The notes below the pieces were generated by a model. It was not told the DNA's origin. It saw nothing but the letters and a program-made list of their open reading frames with translations, and did not search any database. Of a stretch of 64,000 bases of DNA, positions 9,211 through 58,335 are shown piece by piece. The stretch lies in the NCBI GenBank assembly GCA_038202665.1, contig JBBRES010000001.1, forward strand, positions 13,255 to 77,254. The letters are read 5' to 3'. The DNA is from Candidatus Kapaibacterium sp. (GTDB taxonomy: Bacteria; Bacteroidota; Ignavibacteria; Kapaibacteriales; Kapaibacteriaceae). The first letter of the stretch is position 1, and every line of letters begins with the position of its first letter. The position numbers and the translations under genes were made by a program.

Positions 9211-10404
9211 ATGCATCAACTCGTACGACGGTCACTCCTCGGCATCTGTTTCCTCTTCGCCTGCACGGCTCTCCATGCGATTCCGCAATTCTCGCTGATT
9301 AGTGGGAACCGTTGTTCTGGTTGCCACGTGAATGCGCAGGGATCGGGTTTGCGCACAAACCTCGGTTGGTATTCGTACATGGATGTGAGCATGATTCCAC
9401 GCGAGGGGAGCTTCCTGAGCGGATTGTATAAGGGCGATGAATCGAATCAGTTTCTTGACGACAAGCTCACGCTAGGCATTGACGTGCGCGTACAGAACAC
9501 GAGATCGTTTTACGATTCCGCCGCACCGCGCACCACATTCCCTATGCAGGCCAACCTCTATGCCTCCTATGAATTCGCAAAGGAATTCATGGTGGAGGGG
9601 TCGTTCAACTTCGCAGCCTTGCGCAAGGCACCGAACTCCACAGATGTAGTGCGCTATCCGGGGCAACGCGCCGGCACCTTCAGTGCATACTTCAAGCCGA
9701 GTGATTCTCTCCCAATGCTTCGCGTTGGCTTCTTCCGTCCAGCAATCGGACTCCGATGGGACGACCACACGGCATTCACGAATTCCTACGTAACGGGATC
9801 GTCACGTCAAGCGCTTGTAGCACCAATGTGGGCAGAGGTTGGAGCAGAGATCAGTTATGAATCACTGAAGTGGCTTACGATTCAGGCTGGTGTGTTCGGT
9901 TCCTCTGGTTTGTCTGAGCTCAAGTTCAGCGACGGAAAAAATCTGTATGCGGCCTTCTCTGGGAATGCCCCAACCTACACCGCACGAATCATGGTGTGGC
10001 CGCGGGCCTTCGACGACAAGATCAACATGTTCTTTGGCGCATCGGGCTTAGTGAACTACAACCTTGGGATGGTGAATGCGTGGGCTGGCGTAGGCCTCAC
10101 GGATTGGCTGGCACTGCAGGCCGAGTTCATGCATCTCGATCGCGTAGGTGTGCTTCAGGCCAATAACATCACCGCCGAACTCATGGTACAGGTATGGTCT
10201 CCACTACTTCCCTACGTGCGTTTTGAACATGGTGAAACACGTCGTGCTCAAGTGACAGATCTAGCATCGGTAAACAGTATCATCCTTGGCGCACAACTCT
10301 TTCCTATCCCGTACGTCGAGATTCGCCCTGAGTATCGCATTTGGGACACCGCACTTCCGGGCTATACATCACGTTGGAACGTACAGCTCCACATCTTCTA
10401 TTGA
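9211..10404 (+). CDS. Cyc2-like fused monoheme cytochrome-porin (outer-membrane beta-barrel with N-terminal CXXCH)
   Basis: A signal peptide (..CTALHA) is followed 13 residues later by CSGCH. The remainder is rich in amphipathic beta strands and ends in a terminal aromatic (..HIFY), as is typical of outer-membrane barrels. At 397 aa it fits the short Cyc2 cluster. Confidence 0.5.
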   Translation: MHQLVRRSLLGICFLFACTALHAIPQFSLISGNRCSGCHVNAQGSGLRTNLGWYSYMDVSMIPREGSFLSGLYKGDESNQFLDDKLTLGIDVRVQNTRSFYDSAAPRTTFPMQANLYASYEFAKEFMVEGSFNFAALRKAPNSTDVVRYPGQRAGTFSAYFKPSDSLPMLRVGFFRPAIGLRWDDHTAFTNSYVTGSSRQALVAPMWAEVGAEISYESLKWLTIQAGVFGSSGLSELKFSDGKNLYAAFSGNAPTYTARIMVWPRAFDDKINMFFGASGLVNYNLGMVNAWAGVGLTDWLALQAEFMHLDRVGVLQANNITAELMVQVWSPLLPYVRFEHGETRRAQVTDLASVNSIILGAQLFPIPYVEIRPEYRIWDTALPGYTSRWNVQLHIFY

Positions 10405-26248: not shown

Positions 26249-27625
26249 ATGTTCTTCAAACAGATCTACGAACCAGGCCTCGCCCACGCATCGTACATGG
26301 TGGGATGTCAGAAAACCGGAACCGTCATGGTGATCGACGCCAAGCGTGACGTCGACACGTACATCGAGATCGCACAGCAGGAACGACTGCAGATCACGCA
26401 CCTTACCGAAACGCACATTCATGCAGACTTCTTAAGCGGAACGCGCGAACTCGCCGCGCTCACGGGCGCAGAAATGCTGCTGAGTGATGAGGGCGGCGAG
26501 GAGTGGCGCTACGAGTTTCCGCATACTGGACTCAGGAATGGCGACATCTTTATGGTGGGTAACATTAAGGTGGAGGTTGTTCACACACCAGGCCATACAC
26601 CTGAGCACATCTCCTTCTTGGTAACCGACACTCCGGCCATTGCGGACGTACCGATTATGATGTTCACAGGCGACTTCGTCTTTGTTGGCGATGTTGGACG
26701 TCCGGATCTTCTTGAAAAGGCGGCAGGGTACAAGGGCACGATGGAGATTGGGGCACGACAACTTTGGACTTCCCTTGCCGCCTTCCGCGCCTTACCAGAC
26801 CATATTCAGGTTCATCCTGCACATGGTGCCGGATCTGCTTGTGGCAAGGCTCTAGGTGCGATTCCTTCGTCGACGGTGGGGTATGAAAAACTAGTAAACT
26901 GGGCATTGCGCCACACCAACGAAGAAGAGTTCGTGCAAGAGCTTCTGTCGGGTCAGCCAGAGCCTCCCTACTACTTTGCCCACATGAAACGCTTAAACAA
27001 AGTTGATCGTCCGCTCCTTCCAAACGTACCCGAGCTCAAACGACTTTCGCTTGCCGATATCGACGATGCTCTAGCGAACAACCAAAACATCGTAGACACG
27101 CGGTCGAAGGTGTCGTTCGCAGGTGGACACATTCCGAACACAATCAACATCCAAGACAACAAGGCCTTCTCTACATGGGCCGGCTGGATGCTCGACTACA
27201 ATGAGCCCTTCACCGTAATCGCTCCTCCTGAACGCACAAACGAGATCATGCGGAAGCTTATGCGCATCGGACTTGATTCTGTTCGCGGCGTTATCGAAGA
27301 CGTCACCATGTGGACGGATGCCGGCAGAGACCTGGCTACTGTTCCACAAATCGACCTTGACGAACTCAAGCAACGCTACGATCATGAGAACGTATTCGTA
27401 GTCGATGTACGCGGTGCAACGGAACATGCGGAAGGTCATATCCCAGGCGCAACAAACATTCATGCCGGCTACCTTCCGCAGCACTACGCAGAAATTCCGA
27501 GAGACAAAGTCGTCGTAATCTCCTGTCAATCCGGCGACCGCTCCAGCATCGCAACATCCATGATGCTTCGCGCCGGATTCACCAACGTGGTAAACTTCCC
27601 GTTGGGGTTTGGGGGATGGAAGTGA
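26249..27625 (+). CDS. persulfide dioxygenase-rhodanese fusion (MBL-fold + two rhodanese domains, CstB-like)
   Basis: MBL-fold motifs (THIHADF, HTPGHTPEH), a non-catalytic rhodanese domain and a catalytic rhodanese with a CQSGDRS loop. The stop TGA is the first triplet of repeat array A. Confidence 0.8.
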   Translation: MFFKQIYEPGLAHASYMVGCQKTGTVMVIDAKRDVDTYIEIAQQERLQITHLTETHIHADFLSGTRELAALTGAEMLLSDEGGEEWRYEFPHTGLRNGDIFMVGNIKVEVVHTPGHTPEHISFLVTDTPAIADVPIMMFTGDFVFVGDVGRPDLLEKAAGYKGTMEIGARQLWTSLAAFRALPDHIQVHPAHGAGSACGKALGAIPSSTVGYEKLVNWALRHTNEEEFVQELLSGQPEPPYYFAHMKRLNKVDRPLLPNVPELKRLSLADIDDALANNQNIVDTRSKVSFAGGHIPNTINIQDNKAFSTWAGWMLDYNEPFTVIAPPERTNEIMRKLMRIGLDSVRGVIEDVTMWTDAGRDLATVPQIDLDELKQRYDHENVFVVDVRGATEHAEGHIPGATNIHAGYLPQHYAEIPRDKVVVISCQSGDRSSIATSMMLRAGFTNVVNFPLGFGGWK

Positions 27626-27940
27626 GTAAAGTGAGAAGTGACGAGTGAGAAGTGAGAAGTCAAGTGAGAAGTGACGAGTGAGAAGTTCGTAAAGTGACAA
27701 GTGACGAGTGAGAAGTGAGAAGTCAAGTGAGAAGTGAGAAGTGAGAAGTGAGAAGTTCGTAAAGTGACAAGTGACGAGTGAGAAGTTCGTAAAGTGACAA
27801 GTGACGAGTGAGAAGTGAGAAGTCAAGTGAGAAGTGACAAGTGAGAAGTGGAATGTGACAGTCTGCCGGGAGGCTGCCGGGAGGCTGCCGGGAGGCTGCC
27901 GGGAGGCTGCCGGGAAGGGTGAGGAGTAAGAAGTGAGAAG
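27621..27940 (+). repeat. composite satellite array A: about 30 GTGAGAA-type heptamers, then 5x CTGCCGGGAGG, then 2-3 heptamers
   Basis: Tandem periodicity read directly. Unit variants are GTGAGAA, GTGACGA, GTGACAA, GTCAA and TTCGTAAA. The array fills the entire spacer between the PDO stop and the S51 peptidase GTG start. Confidence 0.95.
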
Positions 27941-28649
27941 CAAAAACATCATAGCGCTGGGTGGGGGCGGGTTTTCCATGGAACCGGAGAATACCGCTCT
28001 AGACCTTTACGTTTTGCGAGCTGCTGAAGCTGCAAGGCCGAAGGTGTGTTTTCTTCCGCACGCGGCGAGTGACGAGGCTCGATACTGTCTCAACTTCTTT
28101 ACGGCCTTCGCTCGGTACGACTGTACCCCGTCTTCGTTGTCGTTGTTCACAACGCCACCGAAAGAGAATATGGAATCGTTCTTGCATGAGCAAGACGTGA
28201 TCTATGTTGGAGGAGGCAATACGAAGTCGATGCTTGCAGTGTGGCGAGAGTGGGAGCTTGATCGGATCCTTCGTTCATGCTACGAGCATGGCGTGGTGCT
28301 GGCTGGCGTAAGCGCTGGTGCGAATTGTTGGTTCGATGCCTACATCACGGATTCAGCATCACAAGAGCTCGGCGCGCTCACGAACGGACTCGGACTTATC
28401 GGCGGAACATTTTGTCCGCATTACAATGGCGAAGAACAACGTAGACCAACGTTTCACCAACTCGTTGCAAACGGCACCGTGCCCGATGGCATCGCCTGCG
28501 ACGACAGCGTTGCGGCACATTTCAAGGATGGACAGCTACACGTAGCTGTTGCATCGAATCCGTACGCACAAGCATTTCACGTCCGCCGGACAGCCACGGG
28601 CGTTACAGAAGAATCCATATCCACTCATCATCTCGACACCACTTCATGA
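27933..28649 (+). CDS. peptidase S51 family (dipeptidase E / cyanophycinase-like)
   Basis: Conserved N-terminus IIALGGGGF and central GVSAGANCW nucleophile elbow. The GTG start lies within the last heptamers of array A. Confidence 0.7.
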   Translation: MRSKNIIALGGGGFSMEPENTALDLYVLRAAEAARPKVCFLPHAASDEARYCLNFFTAFARYDCTPSSLSLFTTPPKENMESFLHEQDVIYVGGGNTKSMLAVWREWELDRILRSCYEHGVVLAGVSAGANCWFDAYITDSASQELGALTNGLGLIGGTFCPHYNGEEQRRPTFHQLVANGTVPDGIACDDSVAAHFKDGQLHVAVASNPYAQAFHVRRTATGVTEESISTHHLDTTS

Positions 28650-28939
28650 GCACAGAGATCACACCAGAAGCCCTCAAAGCACGCATCGCAGCAGGCGAAA
28701 ACCTCGTCTTGCTCGACGTCCGCAGACCCGATGAACATGCAGAAAAAAATATTCCAGGATCGATCCTAATCACGTTGGATGAACTCGAAGACCGACTCGA
28801 CGAACTCGAGCCCTACCGCAACACAGAACTCATCGTCTACTGCAGAAGTGGCAACCGCAGCGGTCAAGCTTGTATGTTTCTCGACATGATTGGATTCACG
28901 GCAACCGTGAATTTGAAGGGTGGCATGTTGGCATGGTAG
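28646..28939 (+). CDS. single-domain rhodanese (sulfurtransferase)
   Basis: Active-site loop YCRSGNRSGQA. Confidence 0.8.
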   Translation: MSTEITPEALKARIAAGENLVLLDVRRPDEHAEKNIPGSILITLDELEDRLDELEPYRNTELIVYCRSGNRSGQACMFLDMIGFTATVNLKGGMLAW

Positions 28940-29724
28940 GCGTAGAGTTCATCGCCTATATCGTTGCCGTTCTTATCGGCATTTCACTTGGACTTATCGG
29001 CGCGGGCGGAGCGATTGTTGCTGTACCGCTCTTTGTCTATCTCCTTCAAATCCCTCCGACAAGAGCAAGCGGATACGCGTTGTTCGTTGTTGCCGTCTCA
29101 TCCATCTACGCCGTCATTCAACACCATCTTGCACGTCGCATCGACTGGCGAGCCGTGATCGCCTTTGGTATGTCTACAACGATCTCTGTGTTCTTGGTAC
29201 GTGCCTTCGTGATGCCTTTCCTCCCTGCCACCTTCACACTTGGACCTATCTCTGTGGAGCGAGATCATGCGCTGATGATCGCCTTTGCTGGGGTATTGTT
29301 TGCAGCGGCGATTGGCATGCTCAGAAGTACAGAGGAGCGCAGCACGGACACGCCGCCGCACGTCATGCGTCTCACGTTATTCGGTGTTGTGATTGGTGTG
29401 ATCAGTGGATTTCTTGGCGTTGGCGGCGGCTTTCTGATGACGCCCGCGCTCGTGCTGTGGGGTAGACTTGACATGAAGCGCGCTGTCGCAACATCGCTGT
29501 TTCTTATTTGCGTGAACTCTGCGGTTGGTGTTGCTGCGGATATGCGCGCCGGACTCGACTACGATTGGCCGTTCGTCCTCACATTCACGGGTCTCACAAC
29601 CGTCGGCATCATCATCGGCACCGTGCTTGGCAAACGCGTTCATGCAACACATTTGCGAAAAGGATTCGGTTGGTTCGTACTGCTAATAGGCACTGGCGTA
29701 TTACTCCGCGAGCTCTTCTTCTAA
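28933..29724 (+). CDS. TauE/SafE family sulfite/anion exporter
   Basis: Two internal repeats with GxGGG motifs (LIGAGGAIVAVP and FLGVGGGFLMTP). The ATG overlaps the rhodanese stop. Confidence 0.75.
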   Translation: MVGVEFIAYIVAVLIGISLGLIGAGGAIVAVPLFVYLLQIPPTRASGYALFVVAVSSIYAVIQHHLARRIDWRAVIAFGMSTTISVFLVRAFVMPFLPATFTLGPISVERDHALMIAFAGVLFAAAIGMLRSTEERSTDTPPHVMRLTLFGVVIGVISGFLGVGGGFLMTPALVLWGRLDMKRAVATSLFLICVNSAVGVAADMRAGLDYDWPFVLTFTGLTTVGIIIGTVLGKRVHATHLRKGFGWFVLLIGTGVLLRELFF

Positions 29725-29734
29725 TTCTACGATT

Positions 29735-30125
29735 TCGTTATTGTACACTTTCGCAGTCGTACCCGTTCGTCGCACCTCGCTATCGTTGTCCTATACTTTC
29801 GTCGCACTTCGCTTTCGTCGTACTTCGCTTTCGTAATACTCCCCTTTCGTAGAACTTCGTTTTCGTAGCACTTCGCTTTCGTCGTACTTCGCTTTCGTCG
29901 TACTTCGCTTTCGCAGAACTTCGCTTTCGTAGCACTTCGCTTTCGTAAAACTTCGTTTCGTCGTACTTCGCTTTCGTCGTACTTCGCTTTCGTCGTACTT
30001 CGCTTTCGCAGAACTTCGTTTTCGTAGCACTTCGTTTTCGTAATACTTCGTTATCGTAATACCTCGCTTTCGAAGCACTTCGTTTTCGAAACACTTCGTC
30101 TACGAAGTCCTTCGTTCTTGCAGTC
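29735..30125. repeat. satellite array B: about 24 tandem copies of a 16-mer, CTTCGCTTTCGTNGNA
   Basis: Perfect 16-bp periodicity over about 390 bp between convergent tauE-like and der 3' ends. Distal copies degrade into short palindromes (ACTTCGTCTACGAAGT). Confidence 0.95.
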
Positions 30126-30169
30126 CCTTGCTTTTTAGCCGAATGCTTTCGCTGCCGTACGTTTTCGCA

Positions 30170-31492
30170 TCATTCGTCTGCGAAGCGGTCCTTGTTTTTC
30201 GCACGGAACAAGAAGCTCACGGGCACACCTTCAAGTTCGAAGTGCTTACGAAGCTGACGCTCAATGAAGCGCTTATAGGCTTCCGGGATGAGTTCCGGGT
30301 GATTCGCAAAGAACGCGAACAGCGGTGGTGCAGATTTCACTTGCGTGATATAGTTAATGCGTAGGTCGCGGCCCTTCACGCTTGGCGGTGGTACACGCTC
30401 TAGATCTGGCAGAACAAGGTCGTTCAGCTTACTTGTGCTTACGCGCATCGTGCGCCGCGCTTGGATTTCCTTTGCCATTTCAAGAAGTCTCGTGACGCGC
30501 TGCTTTGTGAGTGCGCTCACGTACACCACTGGTGCGTAGTCCACTGTTGGCAGCTCTTCCTTGATCTTGCGAGTGAACTCTTCAGATGTATGAGTGTCTT
30601 TTTCTACAAGATCCCACTTGTTCACGGCGATGATAATACCGCGACGTGATTCCACTACTTGTGCGATGATACGCTTGTCTTGTGCTTCTAGACCTTGCGC
30701 TGCATCAACCACTACAATGGCAACATCGCACCGGTCAATCGCGCGCGCCGTACGCATCGTGCTATACAGTTCGACTTGTTCTTTGATCTGGCTACGTCTG
30801 CGAAGTCCAGCCGTATCAATCAGCACCATTTCTTCGCCATAGAACTTCACCGTGCTATCGATTGCATCGCGTGTTGTGCCAGCAATTGGCGTCACGATCA
30901 TGCGCTCTTTACCAAGCAACACATTGGTGATCGAGCTCTTTCCAACATTCGGTCTGCCAACGATGGCGATCTTCAATCGGTCATCTTCAACCTCGTGCTC
31001 TGCCGGCAGCGCGCTCACGATGGCATCAAGGAAGTCGCCGGTACTTCTTCCATTCAATGCGGAGATCGGGAACGGATCGCCAAGTCCAAGCGCATAGAAT
31101 TCGGATGCATTCAGGTCGGTTTTTGCATTGTCGCACTTATTCACGACTAAGGTCACTGGCTTACTCGATGTGCGAAGCATGGTGGCGATCGCCTCGTCGA
31201 TAGGTGTCATTCCGTCCACCCCATCCACGACCATGATAATGGCATCCGCTTCCTCAACGGCCATCATTGCCTGCTCACGAATGGCCTTATCGAACATTTC
31301 CATGCTCTTGGGTACGATACCTCCGGTATCGACCAATTGGAACGTATGTCCATTCCACTCGCCAACGGCATAGAGCCGATCGCGCGTCACACCGGGCTCC
31401 GACTCCACGATCGCGTGTCGTTCTTCGATGATGCGGTTGAACAATGTTGATTTGCCGACGTTAGGTCGGCCTACGATAGCTACGAGACTCAT
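30170..31492 (-). CDS. der: ribosome-biogenesis GTPase Der (EngA), two GTPase domains + KH-like
   Basis: Two G domains (GRPNVGKSTLFN and GRPNVGKSSITN). The start was taken at MSLVAIVGRPNVGKS. The upstream ORF extension translates repeat C. Confidence 0.9.
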   Translation of the reverse strand: MSLVAIVGRPNVGKSTLFNRIIEERHAIVESEPGVTRDRLYAVGEWNGHTFQLVDTGGIVPKSMEMFDKAIREQAMMAVEEADAIIMVVDGVDGMTPIDEAIATMLRTSSKPVTLVVNKCDNAKTDLNASEFYALGLGDPFPISALNGRSTGDFLDAIVSALPAEHEVEDDRLKIAIVGRPNVGKSSITNVLLGKERMIVTPIAGTTRDAIDSTVKFYGEEMVLIDTAGLRRRSQIKEQVELYSTMRTARAIDRCDVAIVVVDAAQGLEAQDKRIIAQVVESRRGIIIAVNKWDLVEKDTHTSEEFTRKIKEELPTVDYAPVVYVSALTKQRVTRLLEMAKEIQARRTMRVSTSKLNDLVLPDLERVPPPSVKGRDLRINYITQVKSAPPLFAFFANHPELIPEAYKRFIERQLRKHFELEGVPVSFLFRAKNKDRFADE

Positions 31493-31540
31493 ATGCGAAG
31501 TTACGGCTAAAGAGGAGAGGAAGGTGAAAAGGGGGTAGTC

Positions 31541-31727
31541 AAGTGAGAAGTGAGAAGTAAGCAAAGTGAGAAGTGACAAGTGAGAAGTAAGAAGTAAGTA
31601 AAGTGAGAAGTGACAAGTGAGGAGTGAGAAGTCAAGTGAGAGGTGAGAAGTGAGAAGTGAGTAAAGTGACAAGTGAGAAGTGAGAAGTGAGGAGTGAGTA
31701 AAGCGAGAAGAGACAAGTGAGGAGTGG
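31541..31727 (+). repeat. satellite array C: about 27 GTGAGAA-type heptamers
   Basis: Same unit family as array A. It lies in the divergent spacer between der (-) and the four-helix-bundle gene (+). Confidence 0.95.
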
Positions 31728-31814
31728 CGCCCTTTTAAGAGCTATGTCACGTTTGGGGGTCATCTAGGCCCCAGGTGGTGGAGGCACCAATCACTATGAA
31801 ACAAGCATAATCAT

Positions 31815-32192
31815 ATGAAAAGCGAGCAGGAATCGCCCCTTTTCGTCAAATCTGGGCAGTTAGCGGACCGAATACGGAATATTGCCCATGCAAAGTGGTG
31901 GGTTGACACCGACCGCGACATTCTGCGGCAAGTTCTCCGTTCTGGGACTTCAGTTGGCGCTAACTACCGAGAGGCCTGGTTTGCTGAAAGCAAAAACGAC
32001 TTCGCACACAAACTCAAGATTGTCCGAAAAGAGGCGAACGAGACGCTCTATTGGCTTGAACTTCTATCACAAACTCCGAGGTCACACATGTGTACCGACC
32101 TTGAATGCGCCCAACAACTCGCGCGCGAGATCATCTACTTGACCACCGCGTCAATCACTTCGTTAGGCCGTAAGCCTCCAAAGCCAACCTAG
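31815..32192 (+). CDS. four-helix-bundle protein (23S rRNA intervening-sequence protein family)
   Basis: Family pattern ..GANYREAWFAESKNDFAHKLKIVRKEANETLYWLELL. It is bracketed by inverted arrays C and D. Confidence 0.75.
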   Translation: MKSEQESPLFVKSGQLADRIRNIAHAKWWVDTDRDILRQVLRSGTSVGANYREAWFAESKNDFAHKLKIVRKEANETLYWLELLSQTPRSHMCTDLECAQQLAREIIYLTTASITSLGRKPPKPT

Positions 32193-32295
32193 CCCATACA
32201 CTGCAGCCAAACACGAAAAACATCGGCTATGCTCGACGCCTACGTGCGTCCGATAACTCCCGAAGTACTATACACCAAACCAACTATCGCACTTT

Positions 32296-32632
32296 CCCGG
32301 CAGCTTCCCGGCAGCCTCCCGGCAGACTGTCACATTCCACTCGTCACTTCTCACTTCTCACTTGACTTCTCACTTCTCACTCGTCACTTGTCACTTTACC
32401 CACTTCTCACTCGTCACTTGTCACTTTACCCACTTCTCACTCGTCACTTGTCACTTTACCCACTTCTCACTTGTCACTTGACTTCTCACTTCTCACTCGT
32501 CACTTGTCACTTTACCCACTTCTCACTTGTCACTTTACCCACTTCTCACTCGTCACTTCTCACTTGACTTCTCACTTCTCACTCGTCACTTGTCACTTTA
32601 CCCACTTCTCACTTTACTCACTTCTCATTCTT
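32296..32632 (-). repeat. satellite array D: 3x (C)CCCGGCAG followed by about 42 TTCTCAC-type heptamers with a 28-bp higher-order unit
   Basis: It is the reverse complement of array A. The higher-order unit CACTTCTCACTCGTCACTTGTCACTTTAC(C) repeats about 7 times. The array runs into the stop codon of the 32618..33526 gene. Confidence 0.95.
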
Positions 32633-33526
32633 CTGCTTCGCATGCTGCAGTCTCTCCATCAGCACAAAGTCATAGCTCACGAGCATCGTAGAGGCTGAGC
32701 CATACATGCCGATGGTGACGGCTTCTTTGTCGCCAACATTCCAGTAGACATATTCGGATTCGACAACGGCGTGTGGACCGTAGTGCGAGATGAGGTCGTC
32801 GACAAAAACTTTTGCCGCCTGTTCGCGTTGCGTTTTGTCGCGAAACGAGTAGTAGAGCTCCGACTTATATGCACGGTTTTGCGCGTCGATGTGAATGAGG
32901 AGAGAGTCGGCCGTGAAGCCATTGCGACTGTAGTTCTTGAAGGCGAGCACCGATTCTTCGATGCGCTTCTTTACGCAGCCAGAGTCCTTAGCGTAGTCTT
33001 CCACATCCTCGCGTGCAGTCTTCAGCGGCAAGGCGAGAGGCCACCTGCGCACCGTTGTGGAATCATTGAACACAAAATTGTCGGGTGCGAATCGGACGGT
33101 CATCAAATCGTCTTCCGTCACAACGCCAATACTTACGAGATCACCATCATATCCTTCCCACCCTGCAAAGTCCTCGCCAAACCGTGATGGCGCTCCGAGC
33201 TTCGTTGTTAGGATGTCGGTGACACGATCTAAGGTCTTTGCGCCTTCGTAGGGAATGTAGAGTGTGATGGCCGACATTGCATTGTTGCTGTAGTGCACGT
33301 ACACAGAGTCGGTCTTCATACCTTCCCACGTATACCCCGTTGCTTGCAACACTTGCTCCGCGCCCCAATCCATCATGCCGTCTCGCACCGTGAGTCCTTG
33401 CTTCGCGAGCACCACGCGCGCATTATCTGCGGGTGCCATGTAAGGCACTTGCGTTGGCCACGGATATTGGGCCATCAAGGAACACGTAGAAAGTAGGAAG
33501 GCGGCAAGGAGGAGCGGACGGGACAT
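32618..33526 (-). CDS. hypothetical secreted protein
   Basis: Signal peptide (LLAAFLLSTCSLMAQ). The last about 6 codons (..KQKNEK*) are encoded by repeat-like sequence. Confidence 0.45.
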   Translation of the reverse strand: MSRPLLLAAFLLSTCSLMAQYPWPTQVPYMAPADNARVVLAKQGLTVRDGMMDWGAEQVLQATGYTWEGMKTDSVYVHYSNNAMSAITLYIPYEGAKTLDRVTDILTTKLGAPSRFGEDFAGWEGYDGDLVSIGVVTEDDLMTVRFAPDNFVFNDSTTVRRWPLALPLKTAREDVEDYAKDSGCVKKRIEESVLAFKNYSRNGFTADSLLIHIDAQNRAYKSELYYSFRDKTQREQAAKVFVDDLISHYGPHAVVESEYVYWNVGDKEAVTIGMYGSASTMLVSYDFVLMERLQHAKQKNEK

Positions 33527-33568
33527 GGTAGATCCAACAATGAGTTGATAGCACCGATCATTTGCCGG

Positions 33569-34543
33569 TCACAACGCCTTGATGAGTTCGGCGACGATTG
33601 CCGATGGCGTCATGCCTTCTGCTTCTGCATTAAAGTTTGTGACGATGCGATGCCTGAGCACGCTTGCTGCCACTGCATTTACATCGTCGATCGATGGCGT
33701 GAATCTTCCTGAAAGTGCAGCGCGTGACTTTGCTCCCAAGACCAAGTACTGGGATGCACGCGGACCTGCTCCGTAGCTCAAGAAGTCGCGCACGATCTTT
33801 GCCGATGCGGCGCTTGGGCGGGTATTGCGCACCAACGTTACGGCATGTTGGATCACATTGTCGGCAACCGGTACTCTGCGCACGAGATTTTGATAAGCAA
33901 TGATGTCTTGAGCGCCGATAACGCGCGCGAGAGTAGGCGTACGCTCGACGGTTGTGCTTCGCACCACTTCCATCTCTTCTTCCATACTCGGATAGTCCAA
34001 CCACAGATTGAACATGAAACGATCCAACTGCGCTTCCGGAAGTGGATACGTCCCCTCTTGCTCGATAGGATTCTGTGTTGCAAGAACAAAGAATGGCTCT
34101 TCGAGTTGATACGTAGTGCCGGCCGCAGTAACGCTATGCTCTTGCATCGCTTCGAGTAAGGCCGCCTGTGTTTTCGGAGGGGTACGATTGATCTCGTCTG
34201 CCAAAACGATGTTGGCGAACACTGGACCCTTAACAAAACGGAAAGATTTATGTCCGGTCGTGATGTTGTCTTCGATTACTTCCGTTCCCGTGATATCACC
34301 CGGCATAAGATCTGGCGTGAACTGAATGCGGGAAAACGAAAGGTCCATGGTTTGTGCAAGCGTGCGAATGAGCAAGGTCTTTGCCAAGCCAGGCACACCA
34401 ACAAGGAGACAGTGCCCGCGTGCAAAGAGCGCGATCAACAATTGATCGATGACATCCTCTTGACCGACGATGACCTTTTGTATCTCCGTCTTGACATTCT
34501 TAATTGCCGACGATGCTTGTTGTACGAGTTCTACGTCATTCAT
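33569..34543 (-). CDS. MoxR-family AAA+ ATPase
   Basis: Walker A LLVGVPGLAKT, Walker B ILADEINR, and MoxR family length and pattern. Confidence 0.85.
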   Translation of the reverse strand: MNDVELVQQASSAIKNVKTEIQKVIVGQEDVIDQLLIALFARGHCLLVGVPGLAKTLLIRTLAQTMDLSFSRIQFTPDLMPGDITGTEVIEDNITTGHKSFRFVKGPVFANIVLADEINRTPPKTQAALLEAMQEHSVTAAGTTYQLEEPFFVLATQNPIEQEGTYPLPEAQLDRFMFNLWLDYPSMEEEMEVVRSTTVERTPTLARVIGAQDIIAYQNLVRRVPVADNVIQHAVTLVRNTRPSAASAKIVRDFLSYGAGPRASQYLVLGAKSRAALSGRFTPSIDDVNAVAASVLRHRIVTNFNAEAEGMTPSAIVAELIKAL

Positions 34544-58003: not shown

Positions 58004-58190
58004 GGCTCACTTCTCACTTCTCACTTCTCACTTCTCACTTCTCACTTAACTTGCCACTACTTTCCTTCCCGGCAGCTGCCGGGAAGCTTCCCGGCAGAAA
58101 TTCATTTTTCTTCTCACTTCTCACTTCTCACTTAACTTGTCACTTGTCACTCGTCACTTCTCACTTTAACTCGTCACTTCTCACTTTAAC
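58004..58190 (-). repeat. satellite array E: TTCTCAC x5, palindromic CCCGGCAG/CTGCCGGG core x3, then TTCTCAC-type heptamers
   Basis: CCCGGCAGCTGCCGGGAAGCTTCCCGGCAG contains two overlapping perfect palindromes (16 bp and 22 bp). It is flanked by the same heptamers as arrays A, C and D. Confidence 0.95.
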
Positions 58191-58335
58191 TTTCCTCTTG
58201 CCTTCCCTCCCTACCATCCTTCACGATCTTCGCACGCGGCTCTTTCGGGATCCTTTTCGCGTTGTGAGTCCAGGATATGTAGAGGCCAATGAAGTAGCGG
58301 CGAAGTCGGGTGATGTAGTGGTGTTATGTAGGGCA

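Follow-up and report, generated by a model that had tools for sequence, protein, structure and literature searches.

A 16-bp tandem repeat array, probably a near-neutral minisatellite, in the convergent tauE-der spacer of Candidatus Kapaibacterium

The stretch of 64,000 nucleotides analysed here (the window; contig JBBRES010000001.1 of Candidatus Kapaibacterium sp., assembly GCA_038202665.1, positions 13,255 to 77,254; all coordinates without a contig label are those of the window) contains an array of 16-bp tandem repeats between two converging genes, a tauE-like sulfite-exporter family gene and der, which encodes a ribosome-biogenesis GTPase. Comparison with related contigs suggests, at a probability of about 0.72, that this array is a clade-specific non-coding minisatellite, or variable-number tandem repeat (VNTR), that fills the 3'-3' spacer, is near-neutral and needs no sequence-specific function. 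Such a function appears to be unnecessary and finds no support, because the two genes lie only 7-15 bp apart in some relatives and because the unit is not conserved between sister species. As judged from these sequence comparisons, the array appears to be fast-changing and dispensable and not a conserved control element. In keeping with a VNTR, the units are arranged head to tail within the size range of about 10-100 bp, the copy number differs by a whole unit between close assemblies, and the array is locus-specific in the sequences scanned.

The spacer comprises 445 bp (29725-30169) and consists almost entirely of the array and its degenerate ends. Set in register, about 25 head-to-tail units can be counted including the degenerate ones, for which the figure of about 24 given in the first-pass annotation, made from the letters of the window, was a fair estimate. 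The core consists of 19 units (29796-30098, + strand), as delimited by Tandem Repeats Finder (TRF), a motif scan and a register table, each being identical at 12-15 of 16 positions to the consensus CTTTCGTAGTACTTCG, a rotated form of the previously noted unit CTTCGCTTTCGTNGNA. According to the register table, the core is bordered by four degenerate units on the tauE side (29732-29795, + strand; 9-12 of 16 positions identical to the consensus) and by two on the der side (30099-30130, + strand). The units are contiguous with a start-to-start spacing of 16 throughout, and a single 1-bp deletion is found in the array at 29955. TRF reported a period of 16 for 29796-30088, with 18.4 copies, 84% matches, 0% indels and a score of 355. 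The pattern CTTTCGTNNNACTTCG, allowing for up to two mismatches, has 20 matches in the window, 19 of which are contiguous in the array; shuffled sequences gave an expected mean of 2.09, and none of 100 shuffles reached 20. Together with the TRF period, a self-identity of 0.82 at lag 16 versus only 0.30 at lag 7 confirms the earlier description of a satellite with its own unit and period. The remark in the first-pass annotation that 16 bp amount to about 1.5 helical turns is a matter of arithmetic.

Variation is distributed unevenly along the core unit. Positions 2, 4, 5, 6, 11, 12, and 15 are invariant among the 19 units and positions 3, 13, 14, and 16 vary once each, while most variation falls on positions 7-10 (TCGT, TAGC, CAGA, TAAT, and others) and on position 1. 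Non-consensus bases accordingly account for about 34% of the cells at positions 7-10 but, at the 11 most conserved positions, for about 2%. Pyrimidines make up 69% of the + strand of the core, which contains 44 CpG dinucleotides versus about 15 expected from base composition. The variable tetramers reveal a higher-order block of five units (80 bp), the first copy of which (29876-29955, + strand) reads TCGT-TCGT-CAGA-TAGC-TAAA with the 1-bp deletion at its right edge, and the second (29971-30050, + strand) TCGT-TCGT-CAGA-TAGC-TAAT, with one extra TCGT unit in between. In the unit matrix, the lag-6 comparisons yield 16, 16, 16, and 15 of 16 identical positions. A higher-order period across the whole array was rejected, as the peak at lag 159 mostly reflects the register shift caused by the 1-bp deletion; the unit-wise analysis supports one duplicated five-unit block only. 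A homogeneous centre with decayed edges is the usual signature of homogenisation by unequal exchange.

Homologs of Der place the window in a Kapaibacteria/Ignavibacteria-like group of metagenome-assembled genomes (MAGs) from soil and freshwater. Relatives were defined as contigs encoding Der of graded similarity and were ranked by der nucleotide identity, except for L156 and L158/L159, which were ranked by Der protein identity. The closest contig, L042 (GCA_965610785.1), has a 100% identical der gene and contains the same array minus exactly one 16-bp unit, plus one substitution. In pairwise alignments the absent unit corresponds to 29956-29971 (+ strand), one of three identical TCGT units. 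Across 27920-33726, the two sequences differ by only four substitutions outside arrays and all indels lie inside arrays, namely 16 bp in the 16-mer array and 30 bp in a heptamer array at 32371-32400. Just upstream, the arrays at 27.6-27.9 kb contain additional indels of 7, 9, 11, and 33 bp.

A sister species is represented by contigs from four samples (L152-L155), whose der genes are identical among them and show 91.1% nucleotide identity to that of the window. These contigs carry 16-bp arrays at the same junction, with units that are homologous but largely replaced. In L152, repeats fill the 271-bp spacer completely from one stop codon to the other, with eight copies of CCTTCCGSTCTCGCAG followed by nine copies of CCGTRGGCTTTCGTAG. 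The second unit type (type B) agrees with that of the window at 12 of 16 positions, which was equalled by 1 of 2000 composition-matched shuffles, and the motifs T-TCG and AG are common to all three 16-mer types. The contigs of L153-L155 end within arrays of CCGTAGCCTTTCGTAG. Here every visible unit has GC, and L152 has GG or GGG units together with a single GC unit, der being 100% identical. Relic units of the sister-species type were recognised in the window at 30131-30172 (+ strand) by a right-anchored register comparison; GAATGCTTTCGCTGCC and GTACGTTTTCGCATCA correspond in register to GTAGGCTTTCGTAGCC and GTAGGCTTTCGCATCA of L152 at 11 and 13 of 16 positions as counted by eye, and the last relic unit includes the stop codon of der (TCA, 30170-30172). 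The comparison of array length between strains that had been proposed in the first-pass annotation is thereby answered with a difference of one unit to L042 and an array of 271 bp in the sister species.

In more distant relatives, the junction has a different appearance. L147, L148, and L151 (der 84-85% nucleotide identity) contain only 40-53 bp at this site, consisting of 5.6-8 heptamers (TCACTTG / TCACTCG) with the same strand polarity. The gap between der and tauE is 7 bp in L149/L150 (84%) and 15 bp in L043 (78%), the latter having no tandem array in its 21-kb locus; the orthologous spacer of L042, for comparison, is 429 bp long. At lower similarity, genes are found between der and tauE: a hypothetical gene and a GH44 glycosyl hydrolase gene in L044/L045 (Der protein 81% identical), a gene encoding 597 amino acids together with DUF4258 and DUF2283 genes in L156 (77%), and a gene for an FG-GAP protein of 1110 amino acids in L158/L159 (77%).

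No second array of the 16-mer is present in the window or in a further 7.5 kb of the same genome. Public collections were searched with ACTTCGYTTTCGNNNNACTTCG, a pattern of 1.4 units with 17.5 specified bases. All matches were single, and they numbered 41 in a total of 596 Gb from species-representative genomes, 99 in the metagenome collection, and 2 among viral contigs. For the genomes, about 35 matches would be expected by chance according to our estimate, which is close to the number obtained, and no locus with at least two matches was found in the genome, metagenome, or viral collections. The 16-mer array thus appears to be private to the window's lineage. It had been suggested beforehand that a functional role would become unlikely if there were no other copies genome-wide and if transcripts read through uniformly. 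The first part of this statement holds for the window, the further 7.5 kb, and the three public collections.

The resemblance of the substrings ACTTC/TTTCGT to the heptamers, which had been remarked upon earlier, did not stand: the alignment scores of the 16-mer with the heptamers TCACTTC and TCACTTGTCACTCG are reached by a fraction of 0.18-0.32 of composition-matched shuffles. As heptamers occupy the der-tauE junction with the same polarity in the relatives at 84-85%, an in-situ replacement of one satellite by another is conceivable. However, the similarity of the units is not above chance, and the outgroups lack an array, so that heptamer and 16-mer events may have occurred in either order. 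Descent of the 16-mer from the heptamers was not adopted, site and polarity being in agreement and sequence similarity not. Seeding of the array by tandem duplication of the ancestral 15-bp spacer of L043 was not established either, since one of six comparisons gave p ~0.03 and this signal was lost after correction for multiple testing.

According to the preferred reading, the minisatellite would have originated in an ancestor common to the window lineage and the sister species. It would have grown and shrunk through slipped-strand mispairing at replication and through unequal recombination of misaligned units, which are established mechanisms for whole-unit changes of arrays, and its length would change by whole units and by multi-unit blocks. 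Unit variants would spread through slippage or exchange in the manner of concerted evolution, while edge units would escape homogenisation and decay. Under such a process, a variant could sweep through the array much faster than the neighbouring gene gains point substitutions. The array itself would persist as near-neutral or selfish DNA. Its effects are likely to be side effects only: the gap between the converging transcription units would have been widened from at most 15 bp to 445 bp and, in the window lineage only, mutated units on the der side would fold into a stable hairpin with a possible role in stopping or stabilising transcripts. A tandem array at a single locus is an ordinary kind of feature, and hypervariable intergenic tandem repeats are known in bacteria.

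Several points weigh against this interpretation. Arrays are shared by related lineages at the same sites and with the same polarity (see below), which is explained by common descent and equally well by selection for the presence of an array. Copy numbers come from short-read assemblies and not from single reads, so that they may be collapsed, and three contigs of the sister species end inside the array. The hairpin at the der-side end is more stable than chance. Finally, the uneven variation among the unit positions might be a sign of constraint on ACTTCGYTTTCG; to be set against this, the variation counts are inflated by the block duplication and represent few independent events, and between lineages the changes fall in the other half of the unit.

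An unlikely alternative is that the array is a functional DNA element used genome-wide in the clade, either as a putative protein-binding platform or as a recombination hotspot. Under this alternative, T(T/C)TCG / ACTTCG would be a candidate recognition core for a DNA-binding or nucleoid protein, and a hotspot would mediate the insertion or rearrangement of cassettes. The regular alternation of a conserved 12-nt core, ACTTCGYTTTCG, with a variable 4-nt spacer would suit a binding site, as would the persistence of T-TCG and AG in all 16-mer types, but units turn over from one sister species to the other, and even among samples that have an identical der, and this is the opposite of what is expected of a conserved binding site. 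Against genome-wide use speaks the occurrence of only one array of the 16-mer in 64 kb plus 7.5 kb and of none in the public collections. With respect to recombination, arrays flank variable gene slots holding an IVP gene in either orientation, DUF4440, or peptidase S51, and the der-tauE slot contains inserted genes in the more distant relatives. However, no cassette is inserted at this junction in any of the array-bearing lineages, and the junction works without an array in relatives. L042 departs from the synteny of the window inside a heptamer array, but this break may stem from a chimeric assembly.

An equally unlikely but broader possibility is a clade-wide intergenic satellite system, in which position and polarity are kept while units turn over, and which either has a sequence-independent role, for example in cassette recombination, or is made by a lineage-specific repeat-generating activity. 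In the preferred minisatellite reading, too, the 16-mer array is one of several satellite families of the clade (7, 11, 16, 21, and 26/33 bp). In six lineages, arrays with differing units occupy a common set of four junctions without a change in strand polarity, which also speaks for the functional-element alternative discussed above. In support of the minisatellite reading, arrays cover, according to TRF, 1.35-3.2% of the 21-kb syntenic loci of the clade (1.96% in the window); among the relatives at 77-89% Der protein identity, coverage is 0% in L043, L044, L045, L158, and L159 and 0.5% in L156. No rule linking array polarity to the direction of transcription of the neighbouring genes was found at these sites, polarity being conserved per site. 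If such a system existed, more than ordinary slippage debris would be needed to explain the arrays, and IVP, DUF4440, peptidase S51, and the genes inserted between der and tauE would be examples of the cassettes for which the arrays serve as recombination substrate.

Turnover of unit length is also observed at junctions other than der-tauE. Arrays of 11-bp units (AGAGAAGTAAA / CTCTTTTCCTT) are present in L147 (9054-9193, 9719-9972, 13157-13245) and L148 (9143-9254, 9828-9973) at junctions that are occupied by heptamer arrays in the window, and their purine/pyrimidine polarity is the same. A 21-bp array (TGCTCGTTTTTCATATGATTT, ten copies) lies beside the IVP gene in L152 (662-876) and L153 (149-363) and belongs to a family that was not encountered in the window. 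Upstream of der, a slot that varies among close relatives (31493-32617) contains a gene of PF05635 (23S rRNA IVS protein family) in either orientation or, in L151, a DUF4440 gene. In L147/L148/L149/L151/L152 this slot lies between a gene encoding 299 amino acids and der, and arrays flank it whenever it is occupied; in L043 it is empty (80-bp gap). Peptidase S51 is confined to the array-bearing clade, where an array lies upstream of it. Synteny between L042 and the window extends from 33726 down to about 27644; beyond this point (L042 6023 onward), GAPDH-PGK-rhomboid-GcpE takes the place of the MBL-rhodanese gene. This switch within the heptamer array represents either a recombination between heptamer arrays of different loci or a chimeric MAG join at a repeat.

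The window further contains an inverted pair of 162 nt (27732-27893 / 32295-32456; 93% complementary), the arms of which are 4.4 kb apart. Each arm consists of a GAAGTGA heptamer array and an 11-mer array (CTGCCGGGAGG), and the pair encloses peptidase S51, rhodanese, tauE, the 16-mer array, der, and the IVP gene. It does not look transposon-like, as the native genes inside it have retained the ancestral order known from L043, and it could allow inversion. At 58006-58193, just upstream of an open reading frame (ORF) of 804 amino acids, heptamer arrays (CTCACTT six times, then about 11 more) are located on both sides of the palindrome TTCCCGGCAG|CTGCCGGGAA, which uses the 11-mer of the arrays at 27.9 and 32.3 kb. 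Because the 11-mer is found at 58 kb as well, the module of 11-mer and heptamer is dispersed.

The possibility that the array, or its der-side end, serves as a terminator or insulator for the converging genes, with a hairpin stopping the polymerase and the repeat keeping polymerases apart, is regarded as improbable. The first-pass annotation had recognised short palindromes in the terminal copies and proposed a bidirectional terminator. The palindromes CGAAGCACTTCG (30071-30082) and ACTTCGTCTACGAAGT (30093-30108) are real and even combine into an imperfect palindrome of 44 nt (30071-30114) that includes both and is stronger than had been realised. The predicted hairpin has -20.6 kcal/mol on the + strand (z = -4.5, 0/200 shuffles) and -22.7 kcal/mol on the - strand (z = -3.35) and is thus significantly stable on both strands. 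Its origin lies in three der-side units that carry a T-to-A change at position 7; the resulting CGAA(G) pairs with CTTCG of the neighbouring units. The rest of the spacer is without structure.

The location of this hairpin, 57-100 nt downstream of the der stop, would suit a terminator, as would the + strand sequence behind it (UUCUUGC, then CUUUUU 17 nt further on) and the lack of any other terminator-like site in the spacer, its inner 6-bp stem being the sole match of the terminator scan there. However, no U-tract follows on the der strand, and the one on the tauE strand is only weak. The transcript of tauE would have to traverse about 350 nt of array before reaching the hairpin, and seven terminator-like sites in the region versus 5.4 expected from shuffles correspond to the shuffle level. 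Neither is the structure conserved: no discrete hairpin was found at the junctions of L152, the 271-bp spacer of which is all array, and L147, which has heptamers, and junctions of 7 bp and 15 bp are too short for one. Moreover, the hairpin accounts for 44 nt and not for about 400. As the reason for the array, a bidirectional terminator is therefore not upheld; termination may be at most an incidental local effect in the window lineage.

It is very doubtful that the array is expressed as a repetitive small protein or as a repeat-containing small RNA. ORFs of 104 and 95 amino acids run through it on the der strand, the longer one (29780-30094, - strand) with the repeat RKRSxxKxK...ESEV, and an ORF of 92 amino acids through the sister array has also been called as a gene. 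However, a period of 16 is not divisible by 3 and cannot maintain a reading frame, the difference of one unit to L042 causes a frameshift, and the other units of the sister array would encode an unrelated peptide. The 104-amino-acid ORF has no Pfam match and owes its open frame to the scarcity of stop codons in the unit on the - strand; there are only two to three stops per minus-strand frame across the 445-bp spacer, which reflects unit composition. Coding was rejected on the grounds of the period and the missing Pfam match.

With regard to RNA, the whole-spacer fold is unconvincing on either strand, the + strand folding worse than shuffles (z = +2.35) and the - strand yielding z = -2.5. Scans of the window revealed no tRNA and no Rfam (15) family at gathering score, the best sub-threshold value in 29500-30400 being 19.4 bits versus a gathering score of 32, and no promoter motif of the Bacteroidetes type TAnnTTTG occurs in 29700-30200. 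A structured RNA was thus rejected as well. Least credible of all is an assembly artefact, to which tandem repeats are prone and which the three sister contigs ending inside the array might suggest, because the independent assembly L042 has the same array over its whole length save one unit and one single-nucleotide difference; a 16-bp array is also present at this junction in contigs from four further samples.

The tauE-like gene (28933-29724, + strand) was identified by Pfam (TauE PF01925, E = 8.7e-42), its start at 28933 being inferred from a gene call of 263 amino acids in the near-identical contig L042, and its stop codon TAA at 29722-29724 adjoins the first degenerate unit. The gene der (engA; 30170-31492, - strand) encodes a GTPase of 440 amino acids with two MMR_HSR1 domains and a KH_dom-like domain in Pfam, which matches CAN5560520.1 at 100% and has homologs of 439-440 amino acids. 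ORFs and Pfam thus bear out that the array lies between the stops of tauE (29724, +) and der (30170, -), as had been described, and since it is set between two stop codons, it is not a promoter element, again in agreement with the earlier view. Within about 5 kb on each side of the array, Pfam and gene calls give MBL-rhodanese, peptidase S51, rhodanese, tauE, der, an IVP-family gene, an unannotated ORF of 302 amino acids, and MoxR.

Arrays also touch the two ends of der. Its ORF continues without a stop for 60 codons ahead of the true start (31493-31672, - strand), running through a heptamer array, with the translation SLLTSHLSLDFSLLT... A version of Der with 500 amino acids has been deposited in NCBI (P0129), in contrast to the homologs of 439-440 amino acids, and its start was probably mis-annotated because of the heptamer array. 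Similar ORF calls born from arrays are found at 27071-27979 and 32229-32567 and in L147 at 9649-9948. At the other end, the heptamer array runs into the last codons of der in L147 (11303-11364) and L148 (11315-11371), where GACAAGT is both the heptamer unit and the Asp-Lys codons near the C-terminus of Der. The C-terminal residues are KDKYED, KDRFED, KDRYADE, or KDRFADE depending on the lineage. The array of L147/L148 may have remodelled the end of der or may have been seeded from it.

Taken as a locus, the tauE-der junction offers a natural series from no repeat (7-15 bp) via a short heptamer run to a 16-mer array of 270-450 bp, and it is a clean bacterial example of satellite-style concerted evolution. 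It also provides a ready-made strain marker for an uncultured Kapaibacteria-like soil lineage. In practical terms, arrays of this kind break short-read contigs, seed spurious ORFs, and extend the annotated start of der by 60 codons, and they may cause chimeric joins in MAGs.

Compared with known repeat systems, the array does not qualify as a clustered regularly interspaced short palindromic repeat (CRISPR) array, an iteron set, a known RNA, or a coding repeat. Iterons and CRISPR arrays are likewise composed of direct repeats of 16-40 bp. Iterons, however, occur in few copies beside a rep gene or an origin, whereas about 25 contiguous copies are found here and none of the annotated ORFs up to about 5 kb away on either side matches a Rep family. 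Unlike in CRISPR arrays, the units are contiguous and no unique spacers separate the repeats. With intrinsic terminators the locus shares the position between two stop codons and one stable hairpin (30071-30114). It appears to lack their proper U-tract, and it differs from them in that the hairpin is a by-product of three mutated units that is not conserved in the sister arrays, and in that the remaining 350 bp or so of the array have no terminator features.

Heptamer-type arrays are known from bacteria as the short tandemly repeated repetitive sequences (STRR) of cyanobacteria, and long simple sequence repeats (LSSR) were reportedly described from bacteria by Mrazek in 2007. Such arrays resemble the one described here in being intergenic, in their sporadic phylogenetic distribution, in being missing from close relatives, and in that contigs break there. 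The window and its relatives carry heptamer arrays of this kind, including those at the der-tauE junction of L147, L148, and L151. The unit of the tauE-der array, in contrast, has 16 bp and not 5-11 (typically 7), and its similarity to heptamers is not above chance. Long intergenic heptamer arrays that are absent from the orthologous regions of close relatives have been reported for Bacteroidetes, for which slippage was proposed (PMC4679880), and GGGNATC repeats are a further example of bacterial heptamer arrays (PMC4692102). For TAACTGA arrays, found in Beggiatoaceae, Cyanobacteria, and Bacteroidetes, a translational role has been proposed (PMC4679880), which cannot apply to the 16-mer array because it is not located beside a start codon.

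The closest bacterial counterparts are VNTR loci, which have units of 10-100 bp in tens of copies, show whole-unit differences between very close strains, and are presumed to originate by slippage or unequal recombination. Typing loci of this type include the MIRU-VNTR (mycobacterial interspersed repetitive units) of Mycobacterium and SSTR16 of Francisella tularensis, the unit of which is 16 bp long, as its name indicates. The latter locus, also designated Ft-M10, is used in multiple-locus VNTR analysis (MLVA) and varies between 4 and 21 repeats (PMC2723117). In distinction from such loci, the tauE-der array fills a convergent junction from stop to stop in a genome with many satellite families, and it was followed across species, with period and position kept and the unit sequence replaced. 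The latter behaviour is reminiscent of eukaryotic satellite DNA, which evolves by concerted evolution. The array differs from eukaryotic satellites in its size (0.4 kb versus kb to Mb), in its location on a bacterial chromosome, and in having no centromere or heterochromatin context; it shares with them a homogeneous centre, degenerate edges, higher-order blocks, and species-specific variants that sweep through the array while position and period persist.

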